Under the pieces are notes generated by a model. It worked only from the letters and a program-made list of their open reading frames with translations, was not told where the DNA came from and searched no databases. From positions 1-22,263 of the forward strand of contig JBHIFL010000063.1 in the NCBI GenBank assembly GCA_046761065.1: a DNA stretch of 22,263 nt, written 5' to 3'. This DNA is from Candidatus Heimdallarchaeota archaeon. Lineage in GTDB: Archaea > Asgardarchaeota > Wukongarchaeia > Wukongarchaeales > JBHIFL01. A program made the position numbers and the translations under genes. Each line of letters begins with the position of its first letter. Positions within the stretch are counted from its first letter, which is position 1. Positions 5,992 through 22,263 of this stretch are shown here, piece after piece.

Positions 5992-6384
5992 ATGTTTGAA
6001 GAAATTAGTATTTCTACAAATCAGAAGATCAATATCGTGGATATCACAGCCAAAGTTGAAGAACAGGTAAAAAAGAGTGGGGTCGCTACAGGCATTTGTT
6101 CCATAATTACCTTACACTCCACCGCAGCCGTGATTCTCCAAGAGGTCGAACATTCTCTACTCGAGGATCTCAATATGAAACTCGAAGAAATCTTCTACCA
6201 AAGCCCGTATCGCCACAGGAATGCAGCTGCGCATCTAGCTACTAGCTTTCTAGGTCAATCTGTTACGCTCGCAATAAGAAATTCCTTACTGAGACGAGGA
6301 ACATGGCAACAAATCCTTCTTGTTGAACTCGATGGGCCAAGAACTCGATCTGTCGCAATTCAGATCATAAAAGATGAAGGATAG
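5992..6384 (+). CDS. yjbQ: YjbQ/UPF0047 family protein
   Basis: IVDIT, HSTAAV, NAAAHL and GTWQQILLVELDGPRTR family motifs; 130 aa. Confidence 0.92.
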   Translation: MFEEISISTNQKINIVDITAKVEEQVKKSGVATGICSIITLHSTAAVILQEVEHSLLEDLNMKLEEIFYQSPYRHRNAAAHLATSFLGQSVTLAIRNSLLRRGTWQQILLVELDGPRTRSVAIQIIKDEG

Positions 6385-6433: not shown

Positions 6434-7588
6434 TCATGTTTTTGTCTTTATTTCTTCAAGTAATTCATGAATCAACGCCAATCCAGCTATCAGATAATCT
6501 GTTTCCGGTCCATAACCGATTCGGAGATGGTGATCATATCCAAAATGATCCCCTGGTACGACAAGGCAGCTTTTTTCATGAAGCAGTCGTTGAACCAACT
6601 CTGTTGAATTGATGTCTAAATTGTATTTTACAAAGGCTATCGCTCCTGCTTTGGGGGGAATGACTTCAAATAGCTCACCATGGCCTATGAACCATTCATT
6701 GAGCACGGGCCAGTTCGTCTGTAGAATTGATCTCGTTCGTTCGAGGAGCATAGGCCTGACTTCTGGGTGGAGTGTGACTTGTGCTAAAAAGTCGCTTAGA
6801 TTCGAAGGAGAAATAGTCGTGTAGTCTTTATACTTCCAAAATTCCGCAATCTGCGTTTCATCATGGCTGACAATCCAACCAATTCGCAAACCGGGCAACC
6901 CATAGGCTTTAGAAAGTCCAGAAATTGCTAAGACTTGATCATAGTAATCATATATGGTCGGAGTTATCAGTCCCTCCCGTTCTGCACCTTGGTAGACTTC
7001 ATCGGAAAGTATCCACGCATCATAATCTGCGGCAAGGTCTGCAATTATCTTCAGTTGTGTCGCGTCTAATACGGCACCTGTGGGGTTATTCGGGTTGACA
7101 ATCGCAATGGCGCGGGTTTTCTTGGAAACGGAGTCCTGAAGTGCAGCAAGATCTGGAACCCATTCATTTTTCTCTTTTTTTAGAAAGAGCGGCTTTATTT
7201 GCGCTCCAAATGCTTCGGCAAGGCCCGGGATTTGCATGTAATTCGGAAGCATGAGCACAAGTTCGTTTTTTTCGTCATCTTTTTGATCAAAAAGGCTCCA
7301 CGTTGCAATATAATTTGCTTCGGCAGTACCATTTGTGATGATGACATTTTGTATACTTGCTTCATGATACATCTGTGCTATCAACATTCTGAGTTCCTCT
7401 GTCCCATTAGTCTGAGGATAGCCTAGTCTACGATTCAATAATTGTTTATGAAGTTCTTCTCCATTTTCTAGCATGTTCAAAAGCTCAGAAACTTTCAGTG
7501 GCTCGACCCCACTCTCAGACAAATTATATCGCACAATATTTTCCCATTCGGATTGAAGGCGCTCCATTTTGAACGGTTCAAGTACCAT
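6434..7588 (-). CDS. PLP-dependent aminotransferase class I/II
   Basis: NPNNPTG, SDEVY and SGLSKAYGLPGLRIGW (PLP lysine). The ATG at 7588 is preferred over the TTG at 7597. Confidence 0.93.
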   Translation of the reverse strand: MVLEPFKMERLQSEWENIVRYNLSESGVEPLKVSELLNMLENGEELHKQLLNRRLGYPQTNGTEELRMLIAQMYHEASIQNVIITNGTAEANYIATWSLFDQKDDEKNELVLMLPNYMQIPGLAEAFGAQIKPLFLKKEKNEWVPDLAALQDSVSKKTRAIAIVNPNNPTGAVLDATQLKIIADLAADYDAWILSDEVYQGAEREGLITPTIYDYYDQVLAISGLSKAYGLPGLRIGWIVSHDETQIAEFWKYKDYTTISPSNLSDFLAQVTLHPEVRPMLLERTRSILQTNWPVLNEWFIGHGELFEVIPPKAGAIAFVKYNLDINSTELVQRLLHEKSCLVVPGDHFGYDHHLRIGYGPETDYLIAGLALIHELLEEIKTKT

Positions 7589-7844
7589 TGGAATCAATTC
7601 CTTGAGGTTGATGGGTTCACTTAATCACAATCTTTATGCTAGTAATTAATTTCCCACAAAACAATAGGATCTATCCTTTAATTATGAAAAGGTTTCTGTT
7701 CTGTTTCAATAAAGTTTGGATACAAATCAGATATCAACACTTGTAAATGCCTAAAGCTCTCTTCAGAAATTTCAGAATGTTTCACTTACCACAACAGAAG
7801 AAATATTTACGCACAGCAAGATGCGAGAGAAAGAGGTAGATACC

Positions 7845-8601: not shown

Positions 8602-9567
8602 ATGGTTAGTATTCCGAATTTTAGTCCTGATAAGAGCAAAGAATTTATCAAACACATCAATTCCCCATTTGTTAATTTACTGTTTCAAAGGGATATCGAG
8701 CGCCTTCCTATTTCAGATCTTGCCTTTTTAGACCAACAAGAACACCTTTTATCCGAAGATGAGTTTACAAATTTGTTTGCACGGCAATTAGATACGGGAG
8801 GTTGGCTCTCACTGAGTGAAGACCGTGTGTATAATCCGATGTATCAGTCGACCATCTGGCATCTAATTTATCTGGGATATCTCGGTCTAAATGGAACTGT
8901 AATCCCTCACTTGACCAAAGCTGTTAATTACTGTTTTCGAAATTTCTATGATCAAGATGAACAAATATTTCCAAGCGTAAATCGGCGTTATTCTGGGTTT
9001 CTTCAATGTGTAAATGCAATGCTTTTGCGATCTCTACTCAAGATGGGTTTTGCGGATCAAGAAGAGGTTCATGAAGCGTCCTTAGCTCACTTAGATCGCA
9101 TCCATGGTGAAGAAGGCTATTGTCGGTATAAAAAGGGAGGATTCCGCTGTGGCTGGGGGTTGATCAAGGATTTACTCTTTTTAAACGAGTTTCCATCATC
9201 GTGGCGTAACAAAAAGTTCTCAGAAAGTGTCAAAACAAGCCAAGATTACTTACTTTCGTACAACCTATCTGAGGCAAAGCTTCCACGCGCAAAACTGCAG
9301 ATTAGCAGACACTGGCTGACTTATGCATATTTTCGTAGTTATCACAGTGATATTTTTGAAGCTGCTGAAGCTTTGGTTCTTACCGGAGTTAAGAACCACC
9401 GTGAGCTCACAAAAACCCTAAAAGTCATTGGTTCACATTGCCTTAATAGGGCCACTTGGAAATCTGAATATTATCAACCAAAGTGGCCATTCAAGCTCGA
9501 GAGAAGAGCCCCGAGCCCATGGTTGACCTTGAGGGGGCTGCGAATAACAGGTGCAAAGTCTTCTTGA
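8602..9567 (+). CDS. Hypothetical protein, probable prenyltransferase/terpene-cyclase-like alpha/alpha toroid
   Basis: 321-aa ORF with QLDTGGW (QW-like motif), YNPMYQSTIWHLIYLGYLG, YHSDIFEA and terminal PSPWLTLRGLR. The fold call is by pattern recognition only. Confidence 0.65.
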   Translation: MVSIPNFSPDKSKEFIKHINSPFVNLLFQRDIERLPISDLAFLDQQEHLLSEDEFTNLFARQLDTGGWLSLSEDRVYNPMYQSTIWHLIYLGYLGLNGTVIPHLTKAVNYCFRNFYDQDEQIFPSVNRRYSGFLQCVNAMLLRSLLKMGFADQEEVHEASLAHLDRIHGEEGYCRYKKGGFRCGWGLIKDLLFLNEFPSSWRNKKFSESVKTSQDYLLSYNLSEAKLPRAKLQISRHWLTYAYFRSYHSDIFEAAEALVLTGVKNHRELTKTLKVIGSHCLNRATWKSEYYQPKWPFKLERRAPSPWLTLRGLRITGAKSS

Positions 9568-9643
9568 GTTTATAGTATTCAAAGATTGAACTAACCGAGA
9601 CACATATAAGAGCGATACCAACCGTTTGGTGGATGGTGATAAT

Positions 9644-10384
9644 GTGAGAATTCTTTATTTGGTTCCTGGCCAAATGCCTGAACAAGAACAAAAACGCCGG
9701 GAACAGATTGCGCAAACTTTTGTGACAAATCCCGCTACCGAAGTACGAGTTGAAGCTGTTGAAAGGGGGCCATTATCGATAGAATCAGCAATTGAAGATT
9801 ATATGGCCGTTCCAGAGATCCTGAAGAAACTCCTCGGCGTTCAGAAAACATATGATGCCGCAATTATCGGATGTTTTGGAGATCCCGGGCTTAGACCCGC
9901 ACGAGAGCTGGTAGAAATCCCTGTTATTGGCCCTTCTGAAGCCTCTGTCTCATTTGCTTCGATGATTGGCGATACCTTCAGTATTTTGACTGTCCTTGAC
10001 TCAGTGGTTCCACTAATGGAAGCCCAAATGCGAGAGATGGGGGCGGATTCCCGTTGCAAATCGATCCGGACTCTAAACATTCCTGTCTTGGAATTGGCGA
10101 CTGACAAGGAGAGAACCCTTCAAGTCATGATTGATCTTGCAAAACAAATGACCCGTGAAGATCGACCAGCTAGTATCATTTTAGGGTGTATGAGTGAAGC
10201 ATTTCTGCTCTTTGATGAAAAAATGCAACCCTCAATTGATGTGCCTATTATTAATCCAGCTAAAGTTTGCATAAAGACTGCTGAAATGTTTTCCTCACTC
10301 AAAATGACTCATAGCAAGGCATCATATCCCGCTCCCAACTTAGAAAAGTTTTACGAAGCGGGTCTCCTCCGACCCCCGCTCTAG
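9644..10384 (+). CDS. Asp/Glu/hydantoin racemase family protein
   Basis: Two catalytic Cys motifs, IIGCFGDPGL and IILGCMS, plus GPLSIES and IPVIGP. GGTGA ribosome-binding site before the GTG at 9644. Confidence 0.9.
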   Translation: MRILYLVPGQMPEQEQKRREQIAQTFVTNPATEVRVEAVERGPLSIESAIEDYMAVPEILKKLLGVQKTYDAAIIGCFGDPGLRPARELVEIPVIGPSEASVSFASMIGDTFSILTVLDSVVPLMEAQMREMGADSRCKSIRTLNIPVLELATDKERTLQVMIDLAKQMTREDRPASIILGCMSEAFLLFDEKMQPSIDVPIINPAKVCIKTAEMFSSLKMTHSKASYPAPNLEKFYEAGLLRPPL

Positions 10385-10545
10385 TCTAGTTGATAACCCT
10401 GTACAAGATACCCCACATATGATGTGCATCTGTGTTATGGGGCTTCATACCCCTCAATAGTTACCCAGTTGTGTTAATATATCCAGTTACTTAAGTAGAA
10501 ACGACACACACATTCTACGCTTCTTCTTCTCCTTTACTTTTCCTC

Positions 10546-10558
10546 AAAAAAAGGGTAG
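10546..10558 (-). terminator. Oligo-T terminator of the dipeptidase gene
   Basis: CTACCCTTTTTTT on the minus strand, 28 nt after the stop codon. Confidence 0.6.
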
Positions 10559-10586
10559 AATGGAGAAGTAGCTCGATGCTCCAGAC

Positions 10587-11798
10587 TCAGAGTCCCCAAG
10601 CTGCCTTCAGGACCCGCAGCGCATTCTCCCCTATGACTTTCTTAATCTCCTCATTGGAGTATCCGTGCTTAACCAACCATCTGACGATGTTAGGGAAGCA
10701 TTCGGAAGGATTTTCGGCACCTTTAACATACTCTGACTCTTCTGGCTGCTCTTGATCCCGAACTTGGAACCGACTCATGGACAAGTGCGCAGCAAAGACA
10801 TGATGAAGGCCGACATGGTCGCCATACAAGGTGTCTGGGCCAAAACCCACATGTTCCAGACCCATCAACTCTACACAATGCTCAAAATGTTCCATAATGG
10901 CTTCTATACCATGTTCAGGATGTTTTTTCGTTAATGTGGTATGGGGGGCTGCCTCTACACCAATAATACCGCCTTTTTCGGCGAGGGCTTGGAGAACTTC
11001 ATCGGGCTTCATCCGTGGGGTATCCCAGAGCGCCCTTGCTCCGGCATGACTCATGAAAATTGGAGTTTTACTAGCTTCGATCACATCAAGACTAGACTGA
11101 TCCCCCGCGTGACTGATGTCAATAGCAACACCAAGTTTATTCATTCTATCAACTGCTTCGTGCCCTAGAGCCGTTAATCCACCATCTTGATTCTCTCTCA
11201 TGCCCGAACCAAGCATATTGGATTCACTATAGCATATTCCCATCGAACGAATTCCTAAACCGTAAAGTACATCGATACGATCAATTTCATTCTCAATAGG
11301 GGACAAAGATTCAAGTGTTAGGACTAGGGCGCATTTACCGGCCTCATGAGCATTGAGGATGTCCTCTACCCGCTCAGCTCGTATAACAAAATCTTGGTGC
11401 GCAATGTCAGAAAGTCGCATCCCGATATCAAAAACAATATCGTTCCATTTCCAACCATGCTTCGAGGTAATAGTGGCGATACCATCCATTAAATTGTCGA
11501 AGACTGCATCTAGGTGTGACACACTCAACCCTTCGTATGCTGTGAACCATCTCCCCTGCCTGTTGTATTCGAAAACATGGTGAATATCGGCAGGAAACAA
11601 AACTGGGTGGTCATGCGTTGAAATCACTATAGACTCCTTGAGGAGTTGTTGGACAAGTTCCTCCTCCGATTCGTTCACTGGATAAACATAAGGCTCCACA
11701 CGACCAATCTCCTTAGCCAACTCGAACGTTACATAATCAACACCGGGCTCAAGATATTGAAATGACTTATAGCCTGCATATTCTTTGTTACTGCCCAT
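10587..11798 (-). CDS. Membrane dipeptidase (peptidase M19, amidohydrolase superfamily)
   Basis: THDH, LTLES, DISH, MSHAG, GFGPD and GENALRV metal/catalytic motifs. GGTGA ribosome-binding site before the ATG at 11798. Confidence 0.92.
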   Translation of the reverse strand: MGSNKEYAGYKSFQYLEPGVDYVTFELAKEIGRVEPYVYPVNESEEELVQQLLKESIVISTHDHPVLFPADIHHVFEYNRQGRWFTAYEGLSVSHLDAVFDNLMDGIATITSKHGWKWNDIVFDIGMRLSDIAHQDFVIRAERVEDILNAHEAGKCALVLTLESLSPIENEIDRIDVLYGLGIRSMGICYSESNMLGSGMRENQDGGLTALGHEAVDRMNKLGVAIDISHAGDQSSLDVIEASKTPIFMSHAGARALWDTPRMKPDEVLQALAEKGGIIGVEAAPHTTLTKKHPEHGIEAIMEHFEHCVELMGLEHVGFGPDTLYGDHVGLHHVFAAHLSMSRFQVRDQEQPEESEYVKGAENPSECFPNIVRWLVKHGYSNEEIKKVIGENALRVLKAAWGL

Positions 11799-11902
11799 TT
11801 GAATCACCCATTTGTTCAGAATATTAGTTTCTATGTCAAATATTTTTCGAGTTTCGTGAAGGTCTCCCAAAAATGTATTAAGCGTTGTTGATATAGAGAG
11901 GT

Positions 11903-13807
11903 CTACTGAGGTAATCGTCCATATTCCTTAAGCCGGTTAGCCACTTCCATTAGATCTAGGGCTTCCAAGGTTTTCTGTGTGGGCCAGCCTGTCTTCGGGT
12001 CCCACCCATGCCAAATATAATATGCATCTAACAACTTGTCCCATTTTGTTTTATCAATCCACTGGGCTTCTCCATCCACGATTATTGGTTCTTCGATAAA
12101 TCGCCATGGGGGATAATCGGCTTGTCGTGTCCACCCCGCATGTAAAACATTGAAGGCCTTTTCTACGGTATGAATCCTCTCACCAATTTGGAGTAGGTCC
12201 GGCACTTGAATAGATTCTCCAATGGCTGCGGACAAAAGGCTTGCACAGTCCCCAGGCATCAGCATGTCTGTTGTTAGGCTGTTAAAAAAGAAGCATATTC
12301 CAAGGGCATCAAGTACAGCCTCAAATCGTTCATAAAATCCCACTACTTTCTCTTTGTTGGTATATGAGTTCATTGGGCCAATAGAAGGGATCTCAAATAA
12401 CTGTAAACTCTGTTCTCGGGACAGGTGTTGAAGTCGAGATTCGATTGCCGCGCCCCGGGTGTGGGTTCCTCCCCGTGCTGCAACCATTGTGCCAAGAGCC
12501 CACGATTTGGAGTGCCATAAGCATTCCATGAGGTCCTGCCCCTTCACATGAATGGCATATCGATCTGTTCCTCGCCCAATAATCTCCGCTGCCTTTTTAC
12601 TTCCCTCTGCCAGTAGATCTCCGAACCCTTCTCTTTTTGAGATTTTATTAAGTAGATCGAGTATAACTTGCGCATTTCCCCATTCAAGAGGAATTCCCCC
12701 GGTATCCTCTTCGGTGAGAAGGCCTCGTTGATAGCATTCAAAGGCCCAAGCCAGAACTCCGGTTACATTATCACAATCCAAGCCCAGATCATTAGAGAGT
12801 GCATGGGCCTCTAGGATGACTTTTGCATCACACAGGTCCAACTTTGCTCCAAAATCATGAAGATCGTTACCTTGAAGGGCTTCTGAGATCACCTGGCTCC
12901 CGTCTTCTTTTTTTTCAAACTCGTAGACGCCCCAACATTGAATGGGGCAACCATGGCACCCTTTCTTGGATGTCCGGTATTGCAGGAATACCTCTGGGTA
13001 TACATTCTGGGTCTTGTCGAGATTAGGAACACCTCCCTGAAAGTTTCGATATGGGCTTTCCTCCCCCCACGGCGCATCATAGCAGTAGACCCCATATTTC
13101 AGTCGCCTTTGGCTGAACTCGCTAGCCATCACTTTCTTCATGATGTCGTTGATTGCCTCCTTGAAAGCGTTTTCATCCGCCACCTGAATTGATTGGCTGC
13201 CCCGGACAGCAATAGCTTTCAGGTTCTTAGAACCCATGATAGCCCCAAGACCGCATCGGCCTGCCGCCCGTGCTTGATTGACCATGATGCAAGCAGACCT
13301 CACCAAATGTTCTCCCGCTGGCCCGATAACCAGGATCTGAATATTCTCACCTAGCTCTTTTCGAATCAAGGTCTCTGTCTCAGAGACCGGACGGCCCACT
13401 AGATGTGTGGCATCGCGAAGTTCGATTGTTCCGTCGTCTATCCATAGATAGGATAGATCCTTGCATTTTCCTGTGACTAGGATGTGACTGATCCCTGCAG
13501 CTCGTAACTCTGGGGCAAAATCACCTCCTACATTACTGGATCCAATGCCATCCGTCAAGGCATTCTTTGAATCAATGTTCAAACGGACTGCTCCGGGTGT
13601 GGTGGTACCAGCAAGCAATCCTGCTCCAAAAATGATTACATTGGCGGGATCATAAGGGGAAATGTCGATAGGACATTCTTTGAAGAGGAGGTATTGGTTA
13701 ATACCTCGGCCCCCTAAGAATCGTGGATAATACTCCTTTATGGATTCAAAGGAGATTTTGGAGCGGATCAAATCGACTCGAAGAATCATCCCATCTAATA
13801 GATCCAT
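11903..13807 (-). CDS. aor: Tungsten-dependent aldehyde:ferredoxin oxidoreductase family protein
   Basis: FLGGRG, IGPAGE, AAGRCGLGAIMGSKNLKAI, CxxCxxxC (CHGCPIQC) plus a distal Cys in DALGIC, NDLGLD and GWD..TGWP. GAGGTGA ribosome-binding site. Confidence 0.93.
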   Translation of the reverse strand: MDLLDGMILRVDLIRSKISFESIKEYYPRFLGGRGINQYLLFKECPIDISPYDPANVIIFGAGLLAGTTTPGAVRLNIDSKNALTDGIGSSNVGGDFAPELRAAGISHILVTGKCKDLSYLWIDDGTIELRDATHLVGRPVSETETLIRKELGENIQILVIGPAGEHLVRSACIMVNQARAAGRCGLGAIMGSKNLKAIAVRGSQSIQVADENAFKEAINDIMKKVMASEFSQRRLKYGVYCYDAPWGEESPYRNFQGGVPNLDKTQNVYPEVFLQYRTSKKGCHGCPIQCWGVYEFEKKEDGSQVISEALQGNDLHDFGAKLDLCDAKVILEAHALSNDLGLDCDNVTGVLAWAFECYQRGLLTEEDTGGIPLEWGNAQVILDLLNKISKREGFGDLLAEGSKKAAEIIGRGTDRYAIHVKGQDLMECLWHSKSWALGTMVAARGGTHTRGAAIESRLQHLSREQSLQLFEIPSIGPMNSYTNKEKVVGFYERFEAVLDALGICFFFNSLTTDMLMPGDCASLLSAAIGESIQVPDLLQIGERIHTVEKAFNVLHAGWTRQADYPPWRFIEEPIIVDGEAQWIDKTKWDKLLDAYYIWHGWDPKTGWPTQKTLEALDLMEVANRLKEYGRLPQ

Positions 13808-13843
13808 TCATTCACCTCGAGTTTTTTAATAAGGGGTGAAATC

Positions 13844-13857
13844 ATTGCATGTGCAAT
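13844..13857. promoter_or_regulatory. Candidate operator palindrome upstream of aor
   Basis: ATTGCA-TG-TGCAAT perfect inverted repeat, 37-50 nt upstream of the aor start. Confidence 0.35.
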
Positions 13858-14007
13858 CCAGGGTATTCAAGACACGTGGGATTCATTCTAGATCTTCTTC
13901 GACTTAGCTATATTAGAGTTCAAAGACAAAAATTACTGTTATCACAGAAACCGAGCCATCAGTTTAAACTCCGGTATATACATTTTCACCTGGGATTCTT
14001 GTCTGTT

Positions 14008-14406
14008 CTAGCTCATGAAGTCGATGATCTCGAAAGCTTCTTTTATTTCCGGTTTGATCAGTAAGTAAAGAATAATCACATCAAGGATGAGCAAGATGAA
14101 TCCTAAGGGGAGTAGTAGGATAGCAAGGAGGAAAAATATGATTGTAAAAATCCTTGCGACCTGAAAACACCATTTCTTCATCGTCCAGAGCCCCACTCCG
14201 ACAATAATTGCACCAAATCCTAGAAGAAATATTATAACCAGAAAAGTCCAACTGATCCCTCCATCTCCATTGCTTGTTAACTCCTTACGGAGATTCAGGA
14301 GAGCAAGTCCGATGAGAATAACAATAATTCCGCTACTAGTTTGTAAGATCGCAGTAATGGAGACTCCAGTTGGTTGTTTAATTTTAGTCATTGATTGTTT
14401 CGTCAA
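14008..14406 (-). CDS. Small membrane protein (about 4 TM helices), unknown function
   Basis: PTGVSITAIL...GVGLWTMKKW...YLLIKPEIKEAF pattern resembling small archaeal membrane proteins. The start is uncertain (14421, 14406 after GGAGG, or 14391). Confidence 0.75.
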   Translation of the reverse strand: MTKQSMTKIKQPTGVSITAILQTSSGIIVILIGLALLNLRKELTSNGDGGISWTFLVIIFLLGFGAIIVGVGLWTMKKWCFQVARIFTIIFFLLAILLLPLGFILLILDVIILYLLIKPEIKEAFEIIDFMS

Positions 14407-14587
14407 ATATATTTCCTCCACAACCGAGTGTGACGCATTTTAGATCCATTGTGACTTTTTCTGGGCAGTTTAGGCTATTTTGTCATAATTTTCTTTAACA
14501 ATCAAGTCTTTTAAGAGAAGTAAATTTTTACCAAGCAGTTTTTACTTTTCCTACGACATACTTCTATTTAAAAGCGTTATGAAAGGT

Positions 14588-14757
14588 TCTGTTTGGCTAA
14601 TGGACATCTTTTCCTCATTTACGGATGTTAAAAGGAGTGAAAACATCCTAAGTGGTGTAATCACGCATCATGGATTTCAATGACCACTTATTTGATGGAC
14701 TAACTTCAAAGATATTGTTTAAGTTTAAAGAATAAATTATCAAATAGGCCAAACAGA
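14588..14757. ncRNA. Candidate structured RNA or MITE-like element
   Basis: A 10-bp closing inverted repeat plus three abutting 7-8 bp internal stems in a 590-nt intergenic gap. No family recognised. Confidence 0.35.
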
Positions 14758-15010
14758 TGTCAAATTTTCCTCATGTCAATTTAAATCTGGGGAGTCCCAA
14801 TCTTTGTTGGTATTCTGCTAAAAATATTGATTTCTGTAGATGGATGTGCCTTACTGAATTAACATTGGCACCTACAACGAAATAATCGGATCGTCACCGG
14901 ATTGATTCTTCAAATTTAACACAAACTAACAAATCATACAAATACAAATTATAATCAAGAACTTCTCCTCTCTTACTCCAACTTGGTTGATAGGCATTTT
15001 GGCAGTTCAG

Positions 15011-16093
15011 CTAGCTTAGTTGTGATTTGTCCAAAGTTATTCCAAGGCCGATGTCCTCTGAGACGCTAACTTTAGGGCTTTGTTTTAAGATAGGGGTAAC
15101 AGGCTGGGTTGTTAATATCCAACTGCCGATTTCTAGGGCTGAATGTAAGTTTGGGGTAACAACAGCTAGGTTAACCCAGACCCGCTCGTCTAATGATGTA
15201 CCCAACGCGCTGATCATGGTCACATCTGTCTTAAACTCTCGTGCCATATCAGCCATAAGCTTAATTTGGGTGGGCCCCCCCGCTTTGGCCATTTTAAGAC
15301 AAAGACCATCTACAATCTCGTTAACTAACAGATTCATTGCATCTTTTGGTGTATGACAACTCTCATCGGCAAAGATTGGTGTATTAAATTCTTGACTGAG
15401 CTTTTTCAAATCAGATAAGTTCTCTCTGGCCACCGGTTGCTCGACATATTCGATTAATTCCTCTTTATCGAGCCTTGTCAAGACTTTGCTTGCTGTTTCA
15501 TAATTCTTCCAACCACAATTGGCGTCGACTCGTACCTTACAGTCTGGAGTCATGATTTCGAGAACACGCATGATCCGCTCTAAATCCTCTTCGACCTGGC
15601 CATGAGCCTTTAGCTTAAAATATTTGAAACCTTTTTTAACCCCTTCTGCTGCACTTTCCGCTGCTTGGGTCGGTTCAATGGCCCCCACCGGGTAGATTGT
15701 ATCAACCTCGTTCCGCACTTTGAAGCCAAACAATTCATAAAAGGGAATTTTACGGAGCTTGCAGTAGAGATCTAACAAGGCGATTTCAACCCCGGCCCTA
15801 GCGCCTGGGTTCTCTTGAACTCGCTCGACCATCGCTCTAAGCAAGGGGAGTGCCTCTTGTACCTCCACTCCTATGAGTAGATCAACAAACTGTTGATCAA
15901 TCAGGGTTTTCATGGAGACGGGAGTTTCTCCTGTGAAAAGGGCAAGGCTTGTGCCCTCCCCATATCCAACTGCACCAGTAGAATCTGTAATCTCTACAAA
16001 AACATGACCTGTGGGCATGTGCTCTCCATACGAGGTGGGAAATGAAATGGTTAAAGGAATTTCCGCTGTATATGTTTCAATCTTCGTGATCAT
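15011..16093 (-). CDS. Enolase-superfamily enzyme, MLE subgroup (dipeptide epimerase / N-acyl amino acid racemase-like)
   Basis: GYGEG, KxK (FKLKA), metal ligands VDAN, EQP and ADES, and second lysine in LKMAKAGG. Confidence 0.9.
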   Translation of the reverse strand: MITKIETYTAEIPLTISFPTSYGEHMPTGHVFVEITDSTGAVGYGEGTSLALFTGETPVSMKTLIDQQFVDLLIGVEVQEALPLLRAMVERVQENPGARAGVEIALLDLYCKLRKIPFYELFGFKVRNEVDTIYPVGAIEPTQAAESAAEGVKKGFKYFKLKAHGQVEEDLERIMRVLEIMTPDCKVRVDANCGWKNYETASKVLTRLDKEELIEYVEQPVARENLSDLKKLSQEFNTPIFADESCHTPKDAMNLLVNEIVDGLCLKMAKAGGPTQIKLMADMAREFKTDVTMISALGTSLDERVWVNLAVVTPNLHSALEIGSWILTTQPVTPILKQSPKVSVSEDIGLGITLDKSQLS

Positions 16094-16142
16094 CGTGAGA
16101 TCAACCCCATTTATCAAGTAACTTGGTTCAAAATTAATTTTT

Positions 16143-16161
16143 AAAAAAGAAAAAAGGGTAG
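16143..16161 (-). terminator. Oligo-T terminator after the substrate-binding protein gene
   Basis: CTACCCTTTTTTCTTTTTT on the minus strand, 28 nt after the stop codon. Confidence 0.6.
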
Positions 16162-16189
16162 TGGTTACATTTGTTCCCTATAAACCAGG

Positions 16190-17923
16190 CTAGTTGACTT
16201 TTCGTCGCCATTGGCGTATCACTAAAGCTAGGGATGCAGTGACAACAGCCGTTCCTACTAGGCCTAGTGAGGTAAAGAATTCATTAACCGGAACCTCGCC
16301 CTCGGTCCAATACATGTTGTGCAGGGAATCCCAGAACACATATCGGCCATCTGGTAAGGTTCCCCATTTAGCTCCATCGACAGCCTTGAAAGTCTTTCGT
16401 ACTACATTGATGAACACTACGTCGTATAGTAAGATCTCTGGGACATCGTGTGATATCAGTGCTTCAGCTTCTTGTAGATATTGTCGCTGTTTTACGGGGT
16501 CTGCTTCAAGTCTCCAATTATCAAATGCTTTGTCGACATCCGGATTGTCATATTGGATGGAGTTGGCAAAGTACTGGCCTTTAATGATCCAGTCGGAATG
16601 GAATAGCTGGAGGGTCCAAAATGTCATGACCCAACGTTTATACAGCTGAAAGTCGAACTCAAAGTTTGATCCGAGTTCGAGCATTGTGGCAAAGTCGACG
16701 ACTTTGCGCTCGATAGTGAATCCAACAGCTTCAAGATCGTCTTCGATTATATCAGCAGCGAGAGCTTCCTCGGGTTCTCCACGGCGTGTCAAAAACTCTA
16801 ATTCAAGGCCAGCACGTACTCCTGACGCATCCGCTGGATAACCTGCCTCGTCCAAGAGTTCTTTGGCTTTATCAGGATTGTAGGTGTAGATAGTACGATC
16901 GGGACTTGGTGTGGTGATATCAGGAGTCCAGTAAGAATCAGTCACGGATCCGAGACCATTGGTGGCAGACGCTACAATGGAATCTCGATCGATAGCATAG
17001 GACATGGCCTGGCGTACTTTGACGTTGGATAAGACGGGGTGTTTCGTATTAATTGGCATGACCATTTTATAGGGTGGGCGGTTGTTCGTGTAGACGTTTA
17101 AGTTTTCATCGGCAACGAGGGTATCGTACGCTTCATATGGCATACCTCTGAAGACATAATCAGCTTCTCCAGTCTGAAACGCGGCTAAGACTGCTGAAGG
17201 TTCTGGAATAATTTTGATGACGATTTCATCTAGGTACGGAGCTGGGGCACCCCAGAAGTCATCAAAACGTTCCAACACAATGTGGGAGCCCTTCACCCAT
17301 TCTTTGAACTTGAACGGGCCAGTACCGATAGTTCTTTCCGGATCACCAGACCGGAATGTGTCGTCTAAGTATCCTTCCACATTGTCGCCAAGAATGTGTT
17401 CAGGGACAATAACCGTGTCTAACCCACCAAATAGTGTCATCTGAATTCCGGGATAAAAGGTTCCAGGGGTTATCTTCACGGTGTAGTCATCCAGGATTTC
17501 GACCACTGTATCTTTGAAGTACAAAGAGGAAAATATATCGTATTGCGCCATCTGTTCAAACGTGAACTTAACATCCTCGGCGTTGAATTCTTCCCCGTCA
17601 TGCCATTTCACACCTTCCCGGAGCTTGAAGGTATAACTACCTTCTGCCTCATTGATCTCTGGTAATTCTTTAGCCAAATTAGGGATAGTTGGTTCCATAT
17701 TATCATCGATTGCCAGCAGAGAGTTCCAGATCTGGCCAGCCACAAAACCAGGGGTCCACGACCCAGTGTATGGACTGACTACTCTAGGCTCTGAAATAAG
17801 TACCGCATTAAAAGTACCACCCTTTGGAATCTGTCCAGCGGTCTTGCAGACAGGAATCAGCAAGAACATACTCAGTACTAGTGTCACTGCAGCAATTCGA
17901 GACAATTTCACTTTTTTATTCAT
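16190..17923 (-). CDS. oppA: Peptide ABC transporter substrate-binding protein (family 5, OppA/DppA-like)
   Basis: Signal peptide, YTFKLREGVKWHDGEEFNAEDVKFT signature, IGTGPFK, VRQAMSYAIDR, and a C-terminal TM helix with basic tail. Confidence 0.95.
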   Translation of the reverse strand: MNKKVKLSRIAAVTLVLSMFLLIPVCKTAGQIPKGGTFNAVLISEPRVVSPYTGSWTPGFVAGQIWNSLLAIDDNMEPTIPNLAKELPEINEAEGSYTFKLREGVKWHDGEEFNAEDVKFTFEQMAQYDIFSSLYFKDTVVEILDDYTVKITPGTFYPGIQMTLFGGLDTVIVPEHILGDNVEGYLDDTFRSGDPERTIGTGPFKFKEWVKGSHIVLERFDDFWGAPAPYLDEIVIKIIPEPSAVLAAFQTGEADYVFRGMPYEAYDTLVADENLNVYTNNRPPYKMVMPINTKHPVLSNVKVRQAMSYAIDRDSIVASATNGLGSVTDSYWTPDITTPSPDRTIYTYNPDKAKELLDEAGYPADASGVRAGLELEFLTRRGEPEEALAADIIEDDLEAVGFTIERKVVDFATMLELGSNFEFDFQLYKRWVMTFWTLQLFHSDWIIKGQYFANSIQYDNPDVDKAFDNWRLEADPVKQRQYLQEAEALISHDVPEILLYDVVFINVVRKTFKAVDGAKWGTLPDGRYVFWDSLHNMYWTEGEVPVNEFFTSLGLVGTAVVTASLALVIRQWRRKVN

Positions 17924-17956
17924 TTAGATACACCTCATAAATAGTGCTGAAAAAAA

Positions 17957-17975
17957 GCTTTTATAAATATTTCTC
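17957..17975 (-). promoter_or_regulatory. BRE/TATA promoter of oppA
   Basis: GAGAAATA-TTTATAAA on the minus strand about 40 nt upstream of the ATG, with a GAGGTG ribosome-binding site at 17931-17936. Confidence 0.6.
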
Positions 17976-18053
17976 GCCTCCTTGGAGTACTAATTGGTTT
18001 CAATGATTGAGTTAAAAAGGGCATTAAAAGGTTTGAAAAGCCCGGTTACCGGC

Positions 18054-18168
18054 CGTAGATAGAACCCTTGTTGTGAACTATCTGGTCGTGTGGAAAAAAA
18101 GCTCACTTATAAAACTTGGAAATTCACACTCGCCAAGCGTAGATAGTGCCCAAACTTTGAAACTATAT
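18054..18168 (+). promoter_or_regulatory. Permease promoter with twin candidate operators
   Basis: TTATAAAA at 18107-18114, flanked by CGTAGATAG-N15-CTATCT and CGTAGATAG-N16-CTATAT. Confidence 0.5.
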
Positions 18169-18197
18169 CAAATCGATCATGTGGGGACTGAAAACAC

Positions 18198-19181
18198 ATG
18201 GGAATCCGCTGGTATATTATAAAACGTCTTCTTAACGCTATACCGGTTTTGTTTTCGGTTTTAGTTATTGCATTCTTCTTAGTTCGCCTAGCGCCAGGAG
18301 ATCCTGCCGTGTTAATGGCCGGAGAAGGAGCAACAGAAGAATACCTTGATCTAATGCGTGAGAAATACGGATTGAATGACCCCATTTGGATTCAGTTTGG
18401 GCGACAAATGAAGAATTTCCTCACGGGTGACTGGGGGAAATCTTGGACATTCGAGAGACCGGTCTTGGATGTGATTATCGACCGGATCCCGCAAACCTTG
18501 CTGCTGGTGGGAGTTGGACTAACGCTAGCTATAATTTTTGGAATTTTTCTGGGATTGGCTGCGGCTCGCGTGCCTTATTCTCTAAAGGATAACCTAATCA
18601 CCTTCTTTTCCTTTTTAGGGTTTTCTCTTCCGGTTTTTTGGTTTGCACAAATCCTTGTTCTGGTCTTTGGAATCAAATTGGGTTGGCTTCCACCTTTTGG
18701 ACTAATAGACTATGGAGTAAATCCAGAATCCAAACTGTTTTGGGGCTGGACATATACAAAAAACATTTTAAAACATTTAATCTTACCAGCTACCGCCTTG
18801 GCTACGGTTTTTTTAGCCACATACACAAAATTAACCCGAGCAGGACTCCTTGAAGTTCAAAGGCAGAATTTTATAATGGCTGCGCGGGCCAAAGGTGTCC
18901 CCGAGGATAAAATTCTTCGTAAACATGGGCTAAGGAATGCGCTGCTGCCTGTCATTACAGTTGCGGGGATACAATTCGGAGTAGCGATCGCAGGAGTCGT
19001 TCTCACAGAGACGGTGTTTGCGTGGCCGGGTGTCGGGCGCCTGCTGTACGATGCCCTATTATTTCGGGATTATCCTTTAGTAATGGGCACATTTGTGTTT
19101 GTATCCCTTTCGGTGGTCTTTTTCAACATACTCGCGGATATCCTCTACGCATGGGTCGATCCACGCATCACATATACATAA
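18198..19181 (+). CDS. oppB: Peptide ABC transporter permease (OppB/DppB-like)
   Basis: LAPGDPA, GDWGKSW, EAA-loop ARAKGV...HGLRNALLP, ETVFAWPGVG and DPRI. Confidence 0.95.
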   Translation: MGIRWYIIKRLLNAIPVLFSVLVIAFFLVRLAPGDPAVLMAGEGATEEYLDLMREKYGLNDPIWIQFGRQMKNFLTGDWGKSWTFERPVLDVIIDRIPQTLLLVGVGLTLAIIFGIFLGLAAARVPYSLKDNLITFFSFLGFSLPVFWFAQILVLVFGIKLGWLPPFGLIDYGVNPESKLFWGWTYTKNILKHLILPATALATVFLATYTKLTRAGLLEVQRQNFIMAARAKGVPEDKILRKHGLRNALLPVITVAGIQFGVAIAGVVLTETVFAWPGVGRLLYDALLFRDYPLVMGTFVFVSLSVVFFNILADILYAWVDPRITYT

Positions 19182-19196
19182 GAAGGGTGAATTGAA

Positions 19197-20057
19197 ATGA
19201 GTGAAAGCGCAGTACAAGAGTTTCAGGAATGGCGAGAAGCATGGCGACGGTTTAAACGCAATCGAGCAGCTGTTGTAGCGTTAGGGTTGTTTCTTGTTAT
19301 CGTGTTTCTGGCGATCTTTGCCGACTGGATTGCTCCATTTGACCCGTTGAAGACTAAAGTTGCGCCCAGCCGCTTACCACCCTCCCGCGATCATCTCTTT
19401 GGGACAGATCAGGTTGGCCGGGATATCTTTAGTGGAGTAATCCATGGCACAAGGACCGGGTTACTTGTAGGAATCATTTCAACCCTCATTTCAGTCACGA
19501 TTGCAATTATTATAGGTATTCTCGCTGGTTATCTAGGTGGCACAGTCGATATGGTCATCATGCGAATAGTAGAAATCCTATTATCGATTCCACCATTTAT
19601 CTTCGCGATGACTATCGTAATACTCTATGGAGTGAGACTTCCAATCATCATCCTCGTTATTGGGTTGTTATCCTGGCCAACGTTAGCACGGATCGTGCGT
19701 GCGGAGGTATTATCACTGAAAGAGCGCGAATTCGTCATGGCGATCCGGTCAGTTGGTGCGAGTGACTTTAACATCGTATTTGATGAAGTGTTACCGAACG
19801 CGCTTCCCCCACTCATCCCTGCGGCAACATTGCAAGTTGCCACCGCGATCTTATTTGAGGCAGCCCTGAGCTTCCTTGGGTTTGGCGATCCAAATGTAGC
19901 CAGTTGGGGAAAATCGCTGTGGATAGCGCAACAAGCGTTGTATGCCGGGAAATGGTGGCCCGTCATTTTCCCGGGAGTTTTTATTGTTCTAACAGCTTTA
20001 TCATTTTCAGTAGTCGGAGATGGGCTGAATGATGCCTTAAATCCAAAACTCCGCTAA
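19197..20057 (+). CDS. oppC: Peptide ABC transporter permease (OppC/DppC-like)
   Basis: HLFGTDQVGRDI, EREFVMAIRSVGA, LSFLGFG and GDGLNDALNPK. GGTGA ribosome-binding site. Confidence 0.95.
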   Translation: MSESAVQEFQEWREAWRRFKRNRAAVVALGLFLVIVFLAIFADWIAPFDPLKTKVAPSRLPPSRDHLFGTDQVGRDIFSGVIHGTRTGLLVGIISTLISVTIAIIIGILAGYLGGTVDMVIMRIVEILLSIPPFIFAMTIVILYGVRLPIIILVIGLLSWPTLARIVRAEVLSLKEREFVMAIRSVGASDFNIVFDEVLPNALPPLIPAATLQVATAILFEAALSFLGFGDPNVASWGKSLWIAQQALYAGKWWPVIFPGVFIVLTALSFSVVGDGLNDALNPKLR

Positions 20058-20059
20058 CT

Positions 20060-21046
20060 CTAGATGTGGAAGCAGGCCACATAATGGTCAGGTTCGCTCT
20101 CGACCAATTGCGGTTCTCGAGCGGCGCAATCCGCATCCGCCAATGCACACCGCGTCCGGAACCGACACCCAGATGGTGGATCGATTGGACTAGGCACATC
20201 TCCAGTGAGGGGTGGGTTTTCGATCCAGTCCCGTTGCTCCGGATCCACTGAAGGAGCGGAAGCAAGGAGTGCTCGGGTATAAGGGTGTAATGGTTTTTCT
20301 AAGACATTGGTTATTGGACCAACCTCAACAAGTTTTCCTAGATACATCACAATTACGCGTTCTGCTAGGAAACGGACGACTGGGAGATCGTGGGAAATGA
20401 TGACATAATTGACATTATACAGCTTTTGCAGGTTCCTCATTAGTTCTAAGATTTGGACTCGAACCGTGACATCGACAAAGCTCACGGGTTCATCAGCGAT
20501 AATAAGTTTAGGGCGTAAAGATAATGCTCGGGCAACCAACGCTCTCTGACGTTGGCCTCCACTGAGCTCATGGATGTATCGGTTGAGAAAACTTTCGGGA
20601 GGTGTTAACCCGACAGTTTCAAGCAGTCCTAAAATTTCTGCATCAGTGACAGGGATCTTATGGATTTTAAACGGTTTGAGTAAGATTTTTCGAATCGTTT
20701 TACGCGGGTTGAGCGCGGAGGAGGGGTCCTGGAAGACAACTTGGATATTCCGTCGAATTGTTAGTTGCTCTTCTTTGCTTAATTGGGTCATGCTACTTAT
20801 GGGAAGATCCATAAAAGTGATGGTGCCGTCAGTTGGCTTGATTAACCCACTGAGTATCCTTCCGAGCGTAGTTTTGCCGCAGCCACTTTCTCCCACAATC
20901 CCAACGTTTTGTCCTGCATAGATGTCAAGGCTACAATCATCAACTGCTCGAACTACCTTTTTTGTCCGGTCAAAGATGCCACTGATGGAAAAATATTTTT
21001 TCACATGGCGGGCTTTAAGCAGCGGTTGAGTTGTTGTGGTTGTCAT
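20060..21046 (-). CDS. oppF: Peptide ABC transporter ATP-binding protein (OppF/DppF-like)
   Basis: Walker A GESGCGKTT, LSGGQRQR, IIADEP, HPYT and C-terminal GCRFRTRC...VACF. Confidence 0.95.
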   Translation of the reverse strand: MTTTTTQPLLKARHVKKYFSISGIFDRTKKVVRAVDDCSLDIYAGQNVGIVGESGCGKTTLGRILSGLIKPTDGTITFMDLPISSMTQLSKEEQLTIRRNIQVVFQDPSSALNPRKTIRKILLKPFKIHKIPVTDAEILGLLETVGLTPPESFLNRYIHELSGGQRQRALVARALSLRPKLIIADEPVSFVDVTVRVQILELMRNLQKLYNVNYVIISHDLPVVRFLAERVIVMYLGKLVEVGPITNVLEKPLHPYTRALLASAPSVDPEQRDWIENPPLTGDVPSPIDPPSGCRFRTRCALADADCAAREPQLVESEPDHYVACFHI

Positions 21047-22004
21047 ATTCCCAACACGTCACCCATCTGTCTTTTGTAAGCTGTGTTTTCAAAGGTCTCT
21101 GCTCCTTGCACTGGGAGCGCGCATCGGAGCACCGGGGATGAAATGGACACCCTGGGGGAAGATTCGTCAAGTCGGGAGATGAGCCTTTGATCAACTCTAC
21201 GGTACTTGTCTCCCCGGCATAACTAGAAGCTGCTAGGAGAACCTTTGTATAAGGATGCTTCGGATCCTTAAAAATCTCCAAACAGGGACCTTCTTCCACT
21301 AGATGTCCTGCGTACATCACGATGACCTTGTCAGTTAGTCCTGCTACACACCCTAGGTCATGTGTGATCAGCAGAATTGCAAGGTTCAGTTCACGATTCA
21401 GGGTTTTCAAGAGGTGCAAAATCTGTGCTTGAATGGTCAGGTCCAGTGCCGTAGTTGGCTCATCTGCCAATAAAAGAGAAGGATAATGGGCGATAGCCAT
21501 CGCAATAATTGCCCGCTGAGACATTCCCCCACTCAATTGGTGTGGATAATAATTATAGACCCGTTCCGGATCGGCAATCCGTACCAAATTCAAGATCTCA
21601 ATTACTCGGCGCTCGGCCTCTTTTTGGGTCACTCCTACCTCATGAAGTAAGATAGCTTCCCGAATCTGGTTCCCCACTTTATGAAGGGGGTTCAAAAACG
21701 AAGCAGGGTCCTGAAAGATCATTGAAATCTCTTTTCCTCGAATAGATTGAATAACCTCATCCGGTGCTTGGACAAGTTCAGTATCTTTGAAAAATATGCG
21801 ACCCCCGACGATTTTTGCTGGCGGTGAGATCAAACGAGGGATAGCAATGGCGGTAGTTGTCTTTCCGGAACCGGATTCTCCCACTAAAGCTACAATTTCT
21901 CCTTCCCGGATCTGAAAGCTCACATCATCTACTGCTCGAACTTCAGCGTTGTGTAATAGATATGAAACTCTAAGATTTTCGATCGAAAGTAAGGATGGTT
22001 TCAT
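21015..22004 (-). CDS. oppD: Peptide ABC transporter ATP-binding protein (OppD/DppD-like)
   Basis: GESGSGKTT, YPHQLSGGMSQR, ADEPTTALD and GCPFHPRC. The ATG at 22004 follows GGAG, and the gene overlaps oppF by 32 nt. Confidence 0.95.
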   Translation of the reverse strand: MKPSLLSIENLRVSYLLHNAEVRAVDDVSFQIREGEIVALVGESGSGKTTTAIAIPRLISPPAKIVGGRIFFKDTELVQAPDEVIQSIRGKEISMIFQDPASFLNPLHKVGNQIREAILLHEVGVTQKEAERRVIEILNLVRIADPERVYNYYPHQLSGGMSQRAIIAMAIAHYPSLLLADEPTTALDLTIQAQILHLLKTLNRELNLAILLITHDLGCVAGLTDKVIVMYAGHLVEEGPCLEIFKDPKHPYTKVLLAASSYAGETSTVELIKGSSPDLTNLPPGCPFHPRCSDARSQCKEQRPLKTQLTKDRWVTCWEYDNHNNSTAA

Positions 22005-22153
22005 GTACTCCACGACTTTAACTTGTATGATTCTGGAACGGTGCCATCCAACACGCACACGTGAAGAGCGTTTTTATGTTCTTCGTTCATGTTATTCTAA
22101 GGGGATACGTACCATTAGGGGAAACAAGAAAGTTGAGAAATGGAGAGTTCTTA

Positions 22154-22263
22154 TCAGCCACCCCATATCTCTGTAAGGATCCGTAAAGCGTTTTTCCCGA
22201 TGATTTTCTGAATTTCCGTATCGCTATATCCGTTCTTGACAAGCCACCTAGTAACATTGGGGA
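22154..22263 (-). CDS. C-terminus of a second M19 membrane dipeptidase (truncated by the window edge)
   Basis: PNVTRWLVKNGYSDTEIQKIIGKNALRILTEIWGG* is 22/35 identical (manual count) to the end of the 10587-11798 protein. Confidence 0.9.
   Translation of the reverse strand, partial: PNVTRWLVKNGYSDTEIQKIIGKNALRILTEIWGG

Follow-up and report, generated by a model that had tools for sequence, protein, structure and literature searches.

An Opp-type importer linked to H-x-H M19 amidohydrolases, a two-cysteine racemase, and a modified AOR-family enzyme in an Asgard archaeon and in distant genomes

Which compounds are imported and processed by a gene cluster that combines an Opp-type transporter with M19 amidohydrolases, two candidate stereo-inverting enzymes, and a relative of the tungsten-dependent aldehyde ferredoxin oxidoreductases (AORs)? 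The question is raised by contig JBHIFL010000063.1 (C63) of the Asgard archaeon Candidatus Heimdallarchaeota archaeon (assembly GCA_046761065.1). The window that was analyzed is this whole contig of 22,263 bases, which belongs to a 4.4 Mb assembly in 234 contigs that is 91% complete with 8% contamination. A preliminary description had interpreted the cluster as an archaeal pathway for scavenging D-amino-acid or modified peptides, with a dipeptide epimerase and an AOR working on fermentation aldehydes. The idea of a pathway and the deviations at the active sites held up; the restriction to archaea and the dipeptide epimerase did not, and the role in aldehyde oxidation became doubtful. We propose, with moderate confidence, that the cluster constitutes a mobile catabolic module, shared by many lineages, for small peptide-like amides that require editing of the alpha-carbon configuration before or during hydrolysis.

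The cluster spans 9.6 to 22.3 kb of the window. All of the genes named earlier (Opp importer, MLE-subgroup gene after oppA, Cys/Cys racemase, M19, and AOR) were recovered by Pfam, and the components are as follows:

9626-10384, + strand: Cys/Cys racemase of the hydantoin/allantoin-racemase type (PF01177 Asp_Glu_race, 1e-31, 108 bits)
10587-11870, - strand: M19a, amidohydrolase with the renal-dipeptidase fold (PF01244 Peptidase_M19, 1e-67, 229 bits)
11903-13807, - strand: AOR-family tungstopterin/[4Fe-4S] enzyme (AFOR_N and AFOR_C)
14008-14421, - strand: 137-residue multi-pass membrane protein (no Pfam family matched)
15011-16117, - strand: MLE-subgroup enzyme of the enolase superfamily (MR_MLE_N and MR_MLE_C)
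16190-17923, - strand: OppA, family-5 binding protein (PF00496 SBP_bac_5, 290 bits)
18198-19181, + strand: OppB permease (BPD_transp_1 and BPD_transp_1_N)
19197-20057, + strand: OppC permease (BPD_transp_1 and OppC_N)
20060-21046, - strand: OppF ATPase (ABC_tran and oligo_HPY)
21015-22058, - strand: OppD ATPase (ABC_tran and oligo_HPY)
22154-22263, - strand: M19b, C-terminal piece of 35 residues truncated by the contig end
G000:C66:5-1210, - strand: full M19, probably M19b, on the probable continuation contig (67% identical to M19a), with an MFS gene next

Strand and spacing imply the transcription units M19b-oppD-oppF, oppB-oppC, oppA-MLE, membrane protein, AOR-M19a, and racemase. The oppB-oppC pair is transcribed divergently from oppA, and oppD and oppF are located downstream of M19b on the same strand. 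The MLE gene begins 72 nt downstream of oppA, and its start is likely that of MITKIETY at 16093. The AOR gene lies upstream of M19a on the same strand at a distance of 33-104 nt, depending on the M19a start, which is likely that of MGSNKEY at 11798. The racemase gene, with an alternative GTG start at 9644, is convergent with M19a. The gene for the membrane protein has a 69% identical counterpart, also of 137 residues, in the same slot of a related metagenomic locus, L022, and is present on the P0006 contig too. As for the two M19 paralogues reported earlier, one is intact in the window, but only 35 residues of the second are found there. The first 108 bases of contig C66 are 95% identical to the window end and are followed by a complete M19 gene and then an MFS gene. 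Because of this overlap, and because the resulting MFS-M19-oppD-oppF order is the one found in related metagenomic loci including L022, C66 is the probable continuation of C63 and would complete M19b. A few kb past the M19b-MFS pair, C66 (locus L109, 4715-6584) carries two tandem Amidohydro_2 genes and a ketol-acid reductoisomerase gene.

The closest relatives of the MLE gene were drawn from public assemblies. This family is beside an Opp system in 10 of the 11 related loci and beside the racemase gene in most. Around relatives with 77%, 76%, and 66% identity the genes are ordered M19, oppD, oppF, oppC/oppB on the opposite strand, oppA, MLE, racemase, and M19. In L024/L025, where the MLE protein is 45% identical, a racemase-AOR-nitroreductase-nitroreductase-oppABCDF operon converges on M19-MLE. 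More distant relatives from an uncultured archaeon (41%) and from Halogranum, Halolamina, Halovenus, and other haloarchaea (36-38%) are also beside Opp genes. One or two racemase genes are usually directly adjacent in these loci, and M28, Amidohydro_1, or an M19 of the H-x-H subfamily described below (48-52% identical to that of the window) is near as well. Among species genomes, an MLE alignment query retrieved only six haloarchaeal loci in the specific family, and a single-sequence pattern search for MLE gave no match.

The neighborhoods of the M19 H-x-H subfamily were analyzed by clustering the flanking frames of 79 species-level loci and naming the clusters by Pfam. Importer genes were represented by SBP_bac_5 (49 loci), OppC (44), OppB (35), and Opp ATPases (31). 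Asp_Glu_race was present in 22 loci, Amidohydro_3 in 16, M24 in 14, M28 in 12, M20 in 9, AOR and nitroreductase in 7 each, and PGA_cap in 6. The clade to which the window AOR belongs has M19 or the racemase adjacent at eight distinct loci (the window, P0125, L024, L113/L116, L114/L199, L117, L207, and L223), whereas neither M19 nor this type of racemase was near AORs of other clades (0 of 73 loci). The closest AOR relative, P0125, is found in the arrangement DUF917-AroM-AOR-racemase-DUF917-M20-ABC (DUF917/S-Me-THD). The order is ECF-type transporter-PGA_cap-M19-AOR in Methanomicrobia and in a metagenome-assembled genome of Thermococci, the latter with a racemase and an MFS gene in addition, and CN_hydrolase-UroD-M19-AOR-racemase in Halanaerobiales. 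The arrangements M19-MLE-AOR in Ignavibacteriales and oppABC-racemase-M19-AOR-PGA_cap in Bipolaricaulota include AORs with exactly the active-site signature of the window enzyme. The grouping of these genes is beyond chance, because the same genes recur together in distant genomes. The possibility raised beforehand, that homologues would not co-occur elsewhere, was not borne out: co-occurrence is strong and phylogenetically wide. Both in this window and in distant genomes, the importer shows genetic coupling with one or two cytoplasmic amidohydrolases of the M19 fold and H-x-H type and with the two-Cys racemase. In some lineages, the coupling extends to the MLE-type enzyme and to an AOR-family tungsten enzyme whose active site has been rebuilt.

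Members of the H-x-H subfamily share about 60% identity over more than 10 phyla, with carriers in Thermotogota, Bacillota, Chloroflexota, Deinococcota, Actinomycetota, Bathyarchaeia, Thermococci, and others. In the phylum of the window it is patchy, occurring in 10 of 120 other genomes. This patchy and wide distribution fits an accessory, mobile module. The presence of the module in Bacillota, Chloroflexota, Deinococcota, Actinomycetota, Thermotogota, and other groups, together with its patchiness in the Asgard phylum, is at odds with the earlier view of an archaeal pathway.

The importer is complete: a family-5 binding protein and OppBCDF, all five genes with the expected Pfam domains of the Opp/Dpp (PepT-family) type. 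Inspection of the OppA sequence revealed a signal or lipobox-like segment at the N terminus and a membrane anchor at the C terminus. Its best match among solved relatives is the Bacillus subtilis oligopeptide binder AppA (1xoc, 5e-46), followed by NikA (9e-33), DppA (3e-30), and sugar binders (4e-18). Of the NCBIfam models, Opp4A scored 155 bits and the NikA type 144 bits, and every equivalog cut-off was missed; for OppD and OppF, the best NCBIfam matches are dipeptide/oligopeptide ATPases. The resemblance of OppA to peptide binders is the highest, which suggests a peptide ligand and agrees, as far as a similarity ranking goes, with the peptide importer proposed in the preliminary description.

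M19a belongs to the M19 family (229 bits against a PF01244 cut-off of 26), although the match covers the profile from position 84 only. The zinc ligands of human renal dipeptidase are His20, Asp22, Glu125, His198, and His219 (PMC9305348). Four of the five are kept in M19a and its relatives, and Asp22 is replaced by His in all 13 aligned subfamily members; the first metal motif of M19a is HDH, and His20-x-Asp22 of renal dipeptidase corresponds to H-[D/E]-H in the subfamily. The genome's other, canonical M19 paralogues keep HxD. The active-site deviation reported beforehand is therefore confirmed by alignment and is a signature of the whole subfamily. Also retained are the bridging Glu, the two later His residues, and the Asp; a Tyr replaces the substrate-binding His, a YGDHVGLH segment is added after GPD, and there is a conserved N-terminal extension, MGxNKKYSGYKSxQYLE. 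The first 134 M19 profile positions showed no sequence match to any solved M19. In an AlphaFold model (predicted template modeling score, pTM, 0.85) the HDH motif is on barrel strand 1. All of the 18 highest-ranking Foldseek matches of M19a were M19 structures, the first being 2i5g, which is uncharacterized, and the next Sco3058. According to their PDB titles, solved bacterial M19 structures contain L-Leu-D-Ala and L-Ala-D-Ala mimics. Characterized bacterial M19 enzymes take L-Xaa-D-Xaa, which is reported to be the preference of Sco3058.

The presence of two copies in one cluster has two independent origins in the M19 tree, one in the Asgard-like clade and one in Bacillota. M19a clusters with the L022 copy on the racemase side, and M19b with those that precede oppD in L022 and L023 (99% local support). 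The independent origin of the paired copies suggests that two M19 specificities are useful to the cluster. Several further M19 sequences were observed. L022 has a third copy (4960-6196) between oppF and oppC that is split into three frames and is thus frameshifted or decaying. Contig G000:C14 (L112, 6732-9531) carries a third full H-x-H M19, 54% identical, directly beside a gene for a 421-residue RuBisCO-large-subunit-like protein. On the minus strand of the window, at 4885-5220, there is a decayed MFS-M19 pair, with the intact pair on C66; the tblastn pieces of M19 (4885-5074) and MFS (5069-5220) agree with the pseudogene chimera proposed there earlier.

The MLE-type enzyme has the complete catalytic set of its subgroup: the KxK of strand 2, the catalytic Lys of strand 6, and the Asp/Glu/Asp metal ligands. 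These residues (K168-x-K170, D198, E226, D251, and K275) are invariant in 13 members of the family, align with those of YkfB, and are accompanied by invariant FPTSY and FTGE loops of the family's own. The DxD at the end of strand 8 of dipeptide epimerases (DFD in YkfB and DLD in 3jva) binds the free alpha-ammonium group of the dipeptide. At this position, the FPTSY family has A-L-E-(I/L)-G, and an E-L-x-G is common to this family, the N-succinyl-Arg/Lys racemase 2p88, and the muconate cycloisomerases. The best profile matches were 1jpm and 2p88, both at about 3e-65. The alignment with 2p88 is end to end (3.8e-65), although at only about 30% identity, and the FPTSY loop is not in 2p88; a PDB search with an 81-residue C-terminal piece gave no match. 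The protein 2p88 (BC0371), of the MLE subgroup, groups with Ala-Glu epimerases although their residues are missing from it, and it racemizes N-succinyl-Arg (Song et al. 2007, as summarized in PMC2948282). A catalytic set without DxD fits the sequence features of such an N-acyl racemase, and no partner acyltransferase or deacylase genes are in the window. By its residues, the MLE enzyme should abstract the alpha-proton of a carboxylate-bearing, N-acylated residue.

Two other assignments of the MLE enzyme were considered. It was not filed as a dipeptide (L-Ala-D/L-Glu) epimerase, because DxD is missing and its scores with the NCBIfam epimerase models, 118 and 71 bits, fall short of the cut-offs (500 and 343), as they do for every NCBIfam equivalog. 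The dipeptide epimerase of the preliminary description thus had to be abandoned, with a strand 8 like that of 2p88 and the muconate cycloisomerases, while the deviation of the active site that it had reported was confirmed by alignment as a signature of the whole subfamily. A muconate/chloromuconate cycloisomerase was rejected as well: TIGR02534 gave 161 bits against a cut-off of 335, and the neighbors are Opp, racemase, and peptidase genes. The same genome has a second adjacent MLE-racemase pair on G000:C99 (L110, 1354-6885), with proteins 32% (MLE) and 45% (racemase) identical to the window copies. It adjoins two Amidohydro_3 genes, with a third further on and DUF166 and Fe-S or dehalogenase-like genes nearby.

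Among solved structures, the racemase is closest to allantoin racemase 5lfd (3e-27) and to 3qvj, exclusively of the hydantoin/allantoin type. Both catalytic Cys motifs, GCFGDPG and LGCMS, are kept in alignment with 3qvj, and L022 has an orthologue with 90% identity. The matches at E below 1e-3 included no Asp or Glu racemase, the fungal epimerase OpaE matched weakly (4e-5), and no NCBIfam model was matched. The protein had been described as a stereo-inverting enzyme; its kinship is with hydantoin and allantoin racemases and with no known amino-acid racemase. We know of no characterized member of this racemase type that acts on free amino acids or linear peptides, and for this reason ring-shaped substrates (hydantoins, diketopiperazines, and succinimides) stay in play.

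The AOR-family enzyme aligns with the Pyrococcus furiosus AOR (1aor) at 1e-92. It has the AOR domains, the four Fe-S Cys positions (C288, C291, C295, and C494), the pterin- and Fe-S-binding residues, the fold, and His448. The pocket was read site by site from the alignment: the P. furiosus residues T243, E311, Y312, E313, Y427, H448, and Y452 correspond to V, Q, G, N, C, H, and A, a signature that we refer to as VQGNCHA. Thr243, Glu313, Tyr427, and His448 are conserved in aldehyde-oxidizing clades, and only YdhV and BamB are without them (PMC12096430, a 2025 review). In the window enzyme only His448 is left of these second-shell residues, the others being Val, Asn, and Cys. The VQGNCHA clade aligns best with AOR sensu stricto, unlike YdhV and BamB, and most other AOR paralogues of the genome keep EGPEYE. 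In a tree of 103 AOR-family proteins, the window AOR falls, with 99% local support, within a clade of 17-18 rows, and every row of that clade has Asn at the Glu313 position. This agrees with the deviation noted in the preliminary description and makes it a signature of the subfamily. The NCBIfam AOR equivalog gave 231 bits against a cut-off of 868. An assignment to the WOR4 type of P. furiosus was rejected: WOR4 loses one Fe-S Cys and has Trp for Tyr, whereas the VQGNCHA clade keeps four Cys and has Cys for Tyr.

Since Thr243, Glu313, and Tyr427 are replaced, the window AOR is unlikely to be an ordinary aldehyde oxidizer. The proposal that it oxidizes aldehydes from amino acid fermentation is doubtful on these grounds, and the enzyme is optional in the cluster, being absent from L022 and L023. 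A conventional aldehyde role downstream of peptide breakdown may still apply, because three Bacillota M19 clusters carry AORs that retain Glu313. Between close relatives, AOR and a nitroreductase pair substitute for one another next to one M19 gene: the window AOR and the tandem nitroreductase pair of L022 occupy neighboring slots around M19, and L024 has both. Tentatively, and with considerable doubt, we suggest that the VQGNCHA clade consists of tungsten enzymes that would work with M19 and the racemase and perform a non-aldehyde, ferredoxin-linked redox step on an intermediate derived from peptides or hydantoins. The target could be, for example, a C=N or the C-alpha position. Nitroreductase-like flavoproteins could be functionally exchangeable with the VQGNCHA AOR, and together with M19 and the racemase these enzymes would form an anaerobic route that erases stereocenters in D-containing or cyclic peptides.

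In the reaction scheme that we favor, OppA would capture compounds of di- or oligopeptide size. The MLE enzyme would remove and return the alpha-proton of the C-terminal residue of an N-acylated amino acid. Its substrate would likely be N-blocked, or else held in another way, because the Lys/Lys pair and the metal ligands are kept but the site for a free amino terminus is not. The hydantoin-type racemase would invert the carbon beside an amide carbonyl, probably in a ring or otherwise activated form, and the two M19 paralogues would cleave amide bonds with different stereo- or regio-preference. The AOR-clade enzyme would carry out a ferredoxin-linked redox step on a pathway intermediate and not on generic aldehydes. 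As to the class of substrate, linear D-containing or N-blocked peptides are plausible, though short of an even chance; cyclic dipeptides or hydantoin-like peptide derivatives are somewhat less likely, and so is some other compound. D-peptides, murein fragments, or cyclic dipeptides are substrates that we purely infer.

Several known systems resemble the cluster in part. Bacterial murein-peptide recycling uses import by MppA/Opp, MpaA, the L-Ala-D/L-Glu epimerase YcjG/YkfB (structures 1jpm/1tkk), and PepD. Here too an Opp-type importer is linked both to dipeptidases and to an enzyme of the MLE subgroup that would invert the C-terminal residue of an N-acylated amino acid, and YkfB is the best MLE sequence match. 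However, the window MLE is without the DxD for the dipeptide amino terminus, the peptidases are H-x-H M19 enzymes and not PepD or MpaA, a hydantoin-type racemase and the AOR-clade enzyme are added, and the host is an archaeon without murein. The N-succinyl-amino-acid racemase route of Bacillus cereus BC0371 shares the MLE subgroup, the missing epimerase signature, and E-L-x-G (PMC2948282), but the window has no gene for a succinyltransferase or desuccinylase. The hydantoin-utilization (Hyu) and allantoin (Hpx/All) clusters pair a racemase of the same two-Cys type with a hydrolase of the amidohydrolase superfamily and a dedicated importer; no hydantoinase, allantoinase, or carbamoylase is found here, the hydrolase has the M19 fold, and the importer is of the Opp type. 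P. furiosus AOR (1aor), which functions in peptide fermentation, has in common with the window enzyme the fold, cofactor residues, His448, and peptide-catabolic context, but its Thr243, Glu311, Tyr312, Glu313, Tyr427, and Tyr452 are Val, Gln, Gly, Asn, Cys, and Ala in the window AOR.

Another parallel is found in cyclodipeptide-oxidase-like clusters. In the passages that Andreas et al. devote to nitroreductase-type clusters of the non-CDPS (cyclodipeptide synthase) kind, hydantoin racemases, DUF917, AroM, peptide ABC transporters, and peptidases are enriched; these clusters occur in anaerobic archaea too, and the paper gives them no function there (PMC10557607/PMC11055893). L022 and L024, close relatives of the window, have a tandem nitroreductase pair in the cluster. 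M19, MLE, and AOR partners are not mentioned in those passages (PMC10557607/PMC11055893). A cluster of CDOA plus CDOB was rejected as an identification: there is no nitroreductase gene in the window, and the relatives have two PF00881 genes and no PF19585 (CDOB). Among the papers searched, there was none with both aldehyde ferredoxin oxidoreductase and hydantoin racemase, nor a description of the AOR link, and hydantoin racemase, dipeptidase, and oligopeptide came together only in the cyclodipeptide-oxidase filament study.

The alternative that survives best, although we regard it as improbable, is the catabolism of non-peptide hydantoins or ureides (allantoin-like compounds, 5-substituted hydantoins, or N-carbamoyl amino acids). 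The racemase would be a true hydantoin/allantoin racemase, the H-x-H M19 would open the ring in the manner of a cyclic amidohydrolase, the MLE enzyme would racemize the N-carbamoyl amino acid, and the AOR would oxidize an aldehyde or imine carbon of the ring-derived product. H-x-H is typical of the wider amidohydrolase superfamily, and the replacement of HxD by this motif in M19, like the allantoin and hydantoin racemases as best solved relatives of the racemase, is what such a pathway would lead one to expect. The same can be said of the P0125 AOR, among DUF917/S-Me-THD, AroM, racemase, and M20 genes, and of the CN_hydrolase gene beside M19-AOR-racemase in L117. The enrichment of hydantoin racemase, DUF917, and AroM with peptide transporters, as the relevant passages of PMC10557607 report it for nitroreductase-type clusters, points the same way. 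Nevertheless, the neighborhoods of the M19 subfamily are dominated by Opp systems, M28, M24, and M20, OppA is nearest to oligopeptide binders, and the nearest folds of M19a are dipeptidases and not cyclic amidohydrolases; the window has no hydantoinase, carbamoylase, or DUF917 gene.

Less probable still is ordinary uptake and hydrolysis of L-peptides, in which the MLE enzyme, racemase, and AOR would be housekeeping enzymes, the AOR would act on fermentation aldehydes, and stereochemistry would be incidental. The genome is rich in peptidases and AORs (8 M19 matches and at least 12 AOR paralogues), a thiamine pyrophosphate (TPP) enzyme and an aminotransferase are encoded upstream in the window, and the Glu313-keeping AORs of the three Bacillota clusters fit as well. 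These observations have to be set against the recurrence of the racemase and the MLE enzyme beside importer and M19 across phyla, the loss of Thr243, Glu313, and Tyr427 in the clade of the cluster AOR when most other paralogues of the genome keep EGPEYE, and the absence of the link to M19 or racemase from the 73 loci of other AOR clades. Finally, a chance juxtaposition, or an Opp system that imports a sugar or metal chelate, as is the case for certain family-5 systems of archaea and Thermotoga, with no single pathway, has in its favor that family-5 binders include nickel, opine, and sugar binders (NikA-type 144 against Opp4A 155 bits, both below cut-offs) and that the genes form at least four transcription units on both strands, but it is very improbable given synteny kept from 77% to 36% identity and between domains of life, OppA scores of 1e-18 for sugar binders against 5e-46 for peptide binders, and no glycoside hydrolase or metallophore gene nearby.

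The module for stereochemical editing and hydrolysis of peptide-like amides remains the reading that we prefer, and a number of observations weigh against it. The M19 H-x-H, MLE FPTSY, and AOR VQGNCHA subfamilies are all without a characterized member, and the only characterized relatives of the racemase, as identified by sequence, act on hydantoins or allantoin and not on peptides. The importer type varies, with ECF-type or MFS transporters in place of Opp in other clusters, and Opp binding proteins from distant clusters show an identity of only 23-30%. AOR and MLE are optional: L022 and L023 do without AOR, and an MLE relative is present in only 1 of the 79 M19 loci. The 8 M19 and at least 12 AOR copies in the genome raise the background for chance juxtaposition, and the counts were taken over related genomes that are not independent.

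Asgards and other sediment archaea are believed to feed on detrital protein. Old organic nitrogen is to a large extent tied up in murein fragments, D-amino acids, and peptides that are cyclic or blocked, for which few anaerobic catabolic genes are known. The cluster defines three uncharacterized subfamilies with altered active sites that are linked by gene order across both prokaryotic domains, and the existence of cultured carriers (Bacillaceae, Deinococcus, Lutispora, Halogranum, and Halolamina), such as Halogranum rubrum, Halolamina pelagica, Rossellomorea vietnamensis, and Lutispora saccharofermentans, makes the function directly testable. If the proposal is true, it would amount to a new tungsten-enzyme reaction or to the first gene set of anaerobes for the breakdown of D-peptides, cyclic dipeptides, or hydantoin-like compounds. 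If the substrates are ordinary dipeptides, the outcome would be a useful correction of annotation and nothing more.

The region upstream of the cluster includes the following genes:

1480-3267, + strand: three-domain TPP enzyme
6434-7597, - strand: class I/II aminotransferase
8602-9567, + strand: 321-residue protein (no Pfam family), 58 nt upstream of the racemase gene on the same strand

This flank is syntenic, since L022 also ends with M50 and TPP enzyme genes. The TPP enzyme, the aminotransferase, and the AOR could form a route from 2-oxoacid to aldehyde to acid. The ESM Atlas model of the 321-residue protein (pTM 0.89) and the neighbors of that model point to one alpha/alpha-toroid domain, of the type seen in squalene-hopene cyclases or prenyltransferases; the protein has no paralogue in the genome, and the related loci were found to lack it. 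Between the MLE and membrane-protein genes lies the cluster's largest gap, 590 nt (14422-15011); this stretch matched no Rfam family and is not repeated elsewhere in the genome, and an Rfam search over the whole window gave no match. At the other end of the window, on the minus strand (78-1054), a gene for a HepT-like RNase (78-377) is located beside one for a Pol-beta-type nucleotidyltransferase (506-1054); HepT/MNT is a usual toxin-antitoxin pairing.

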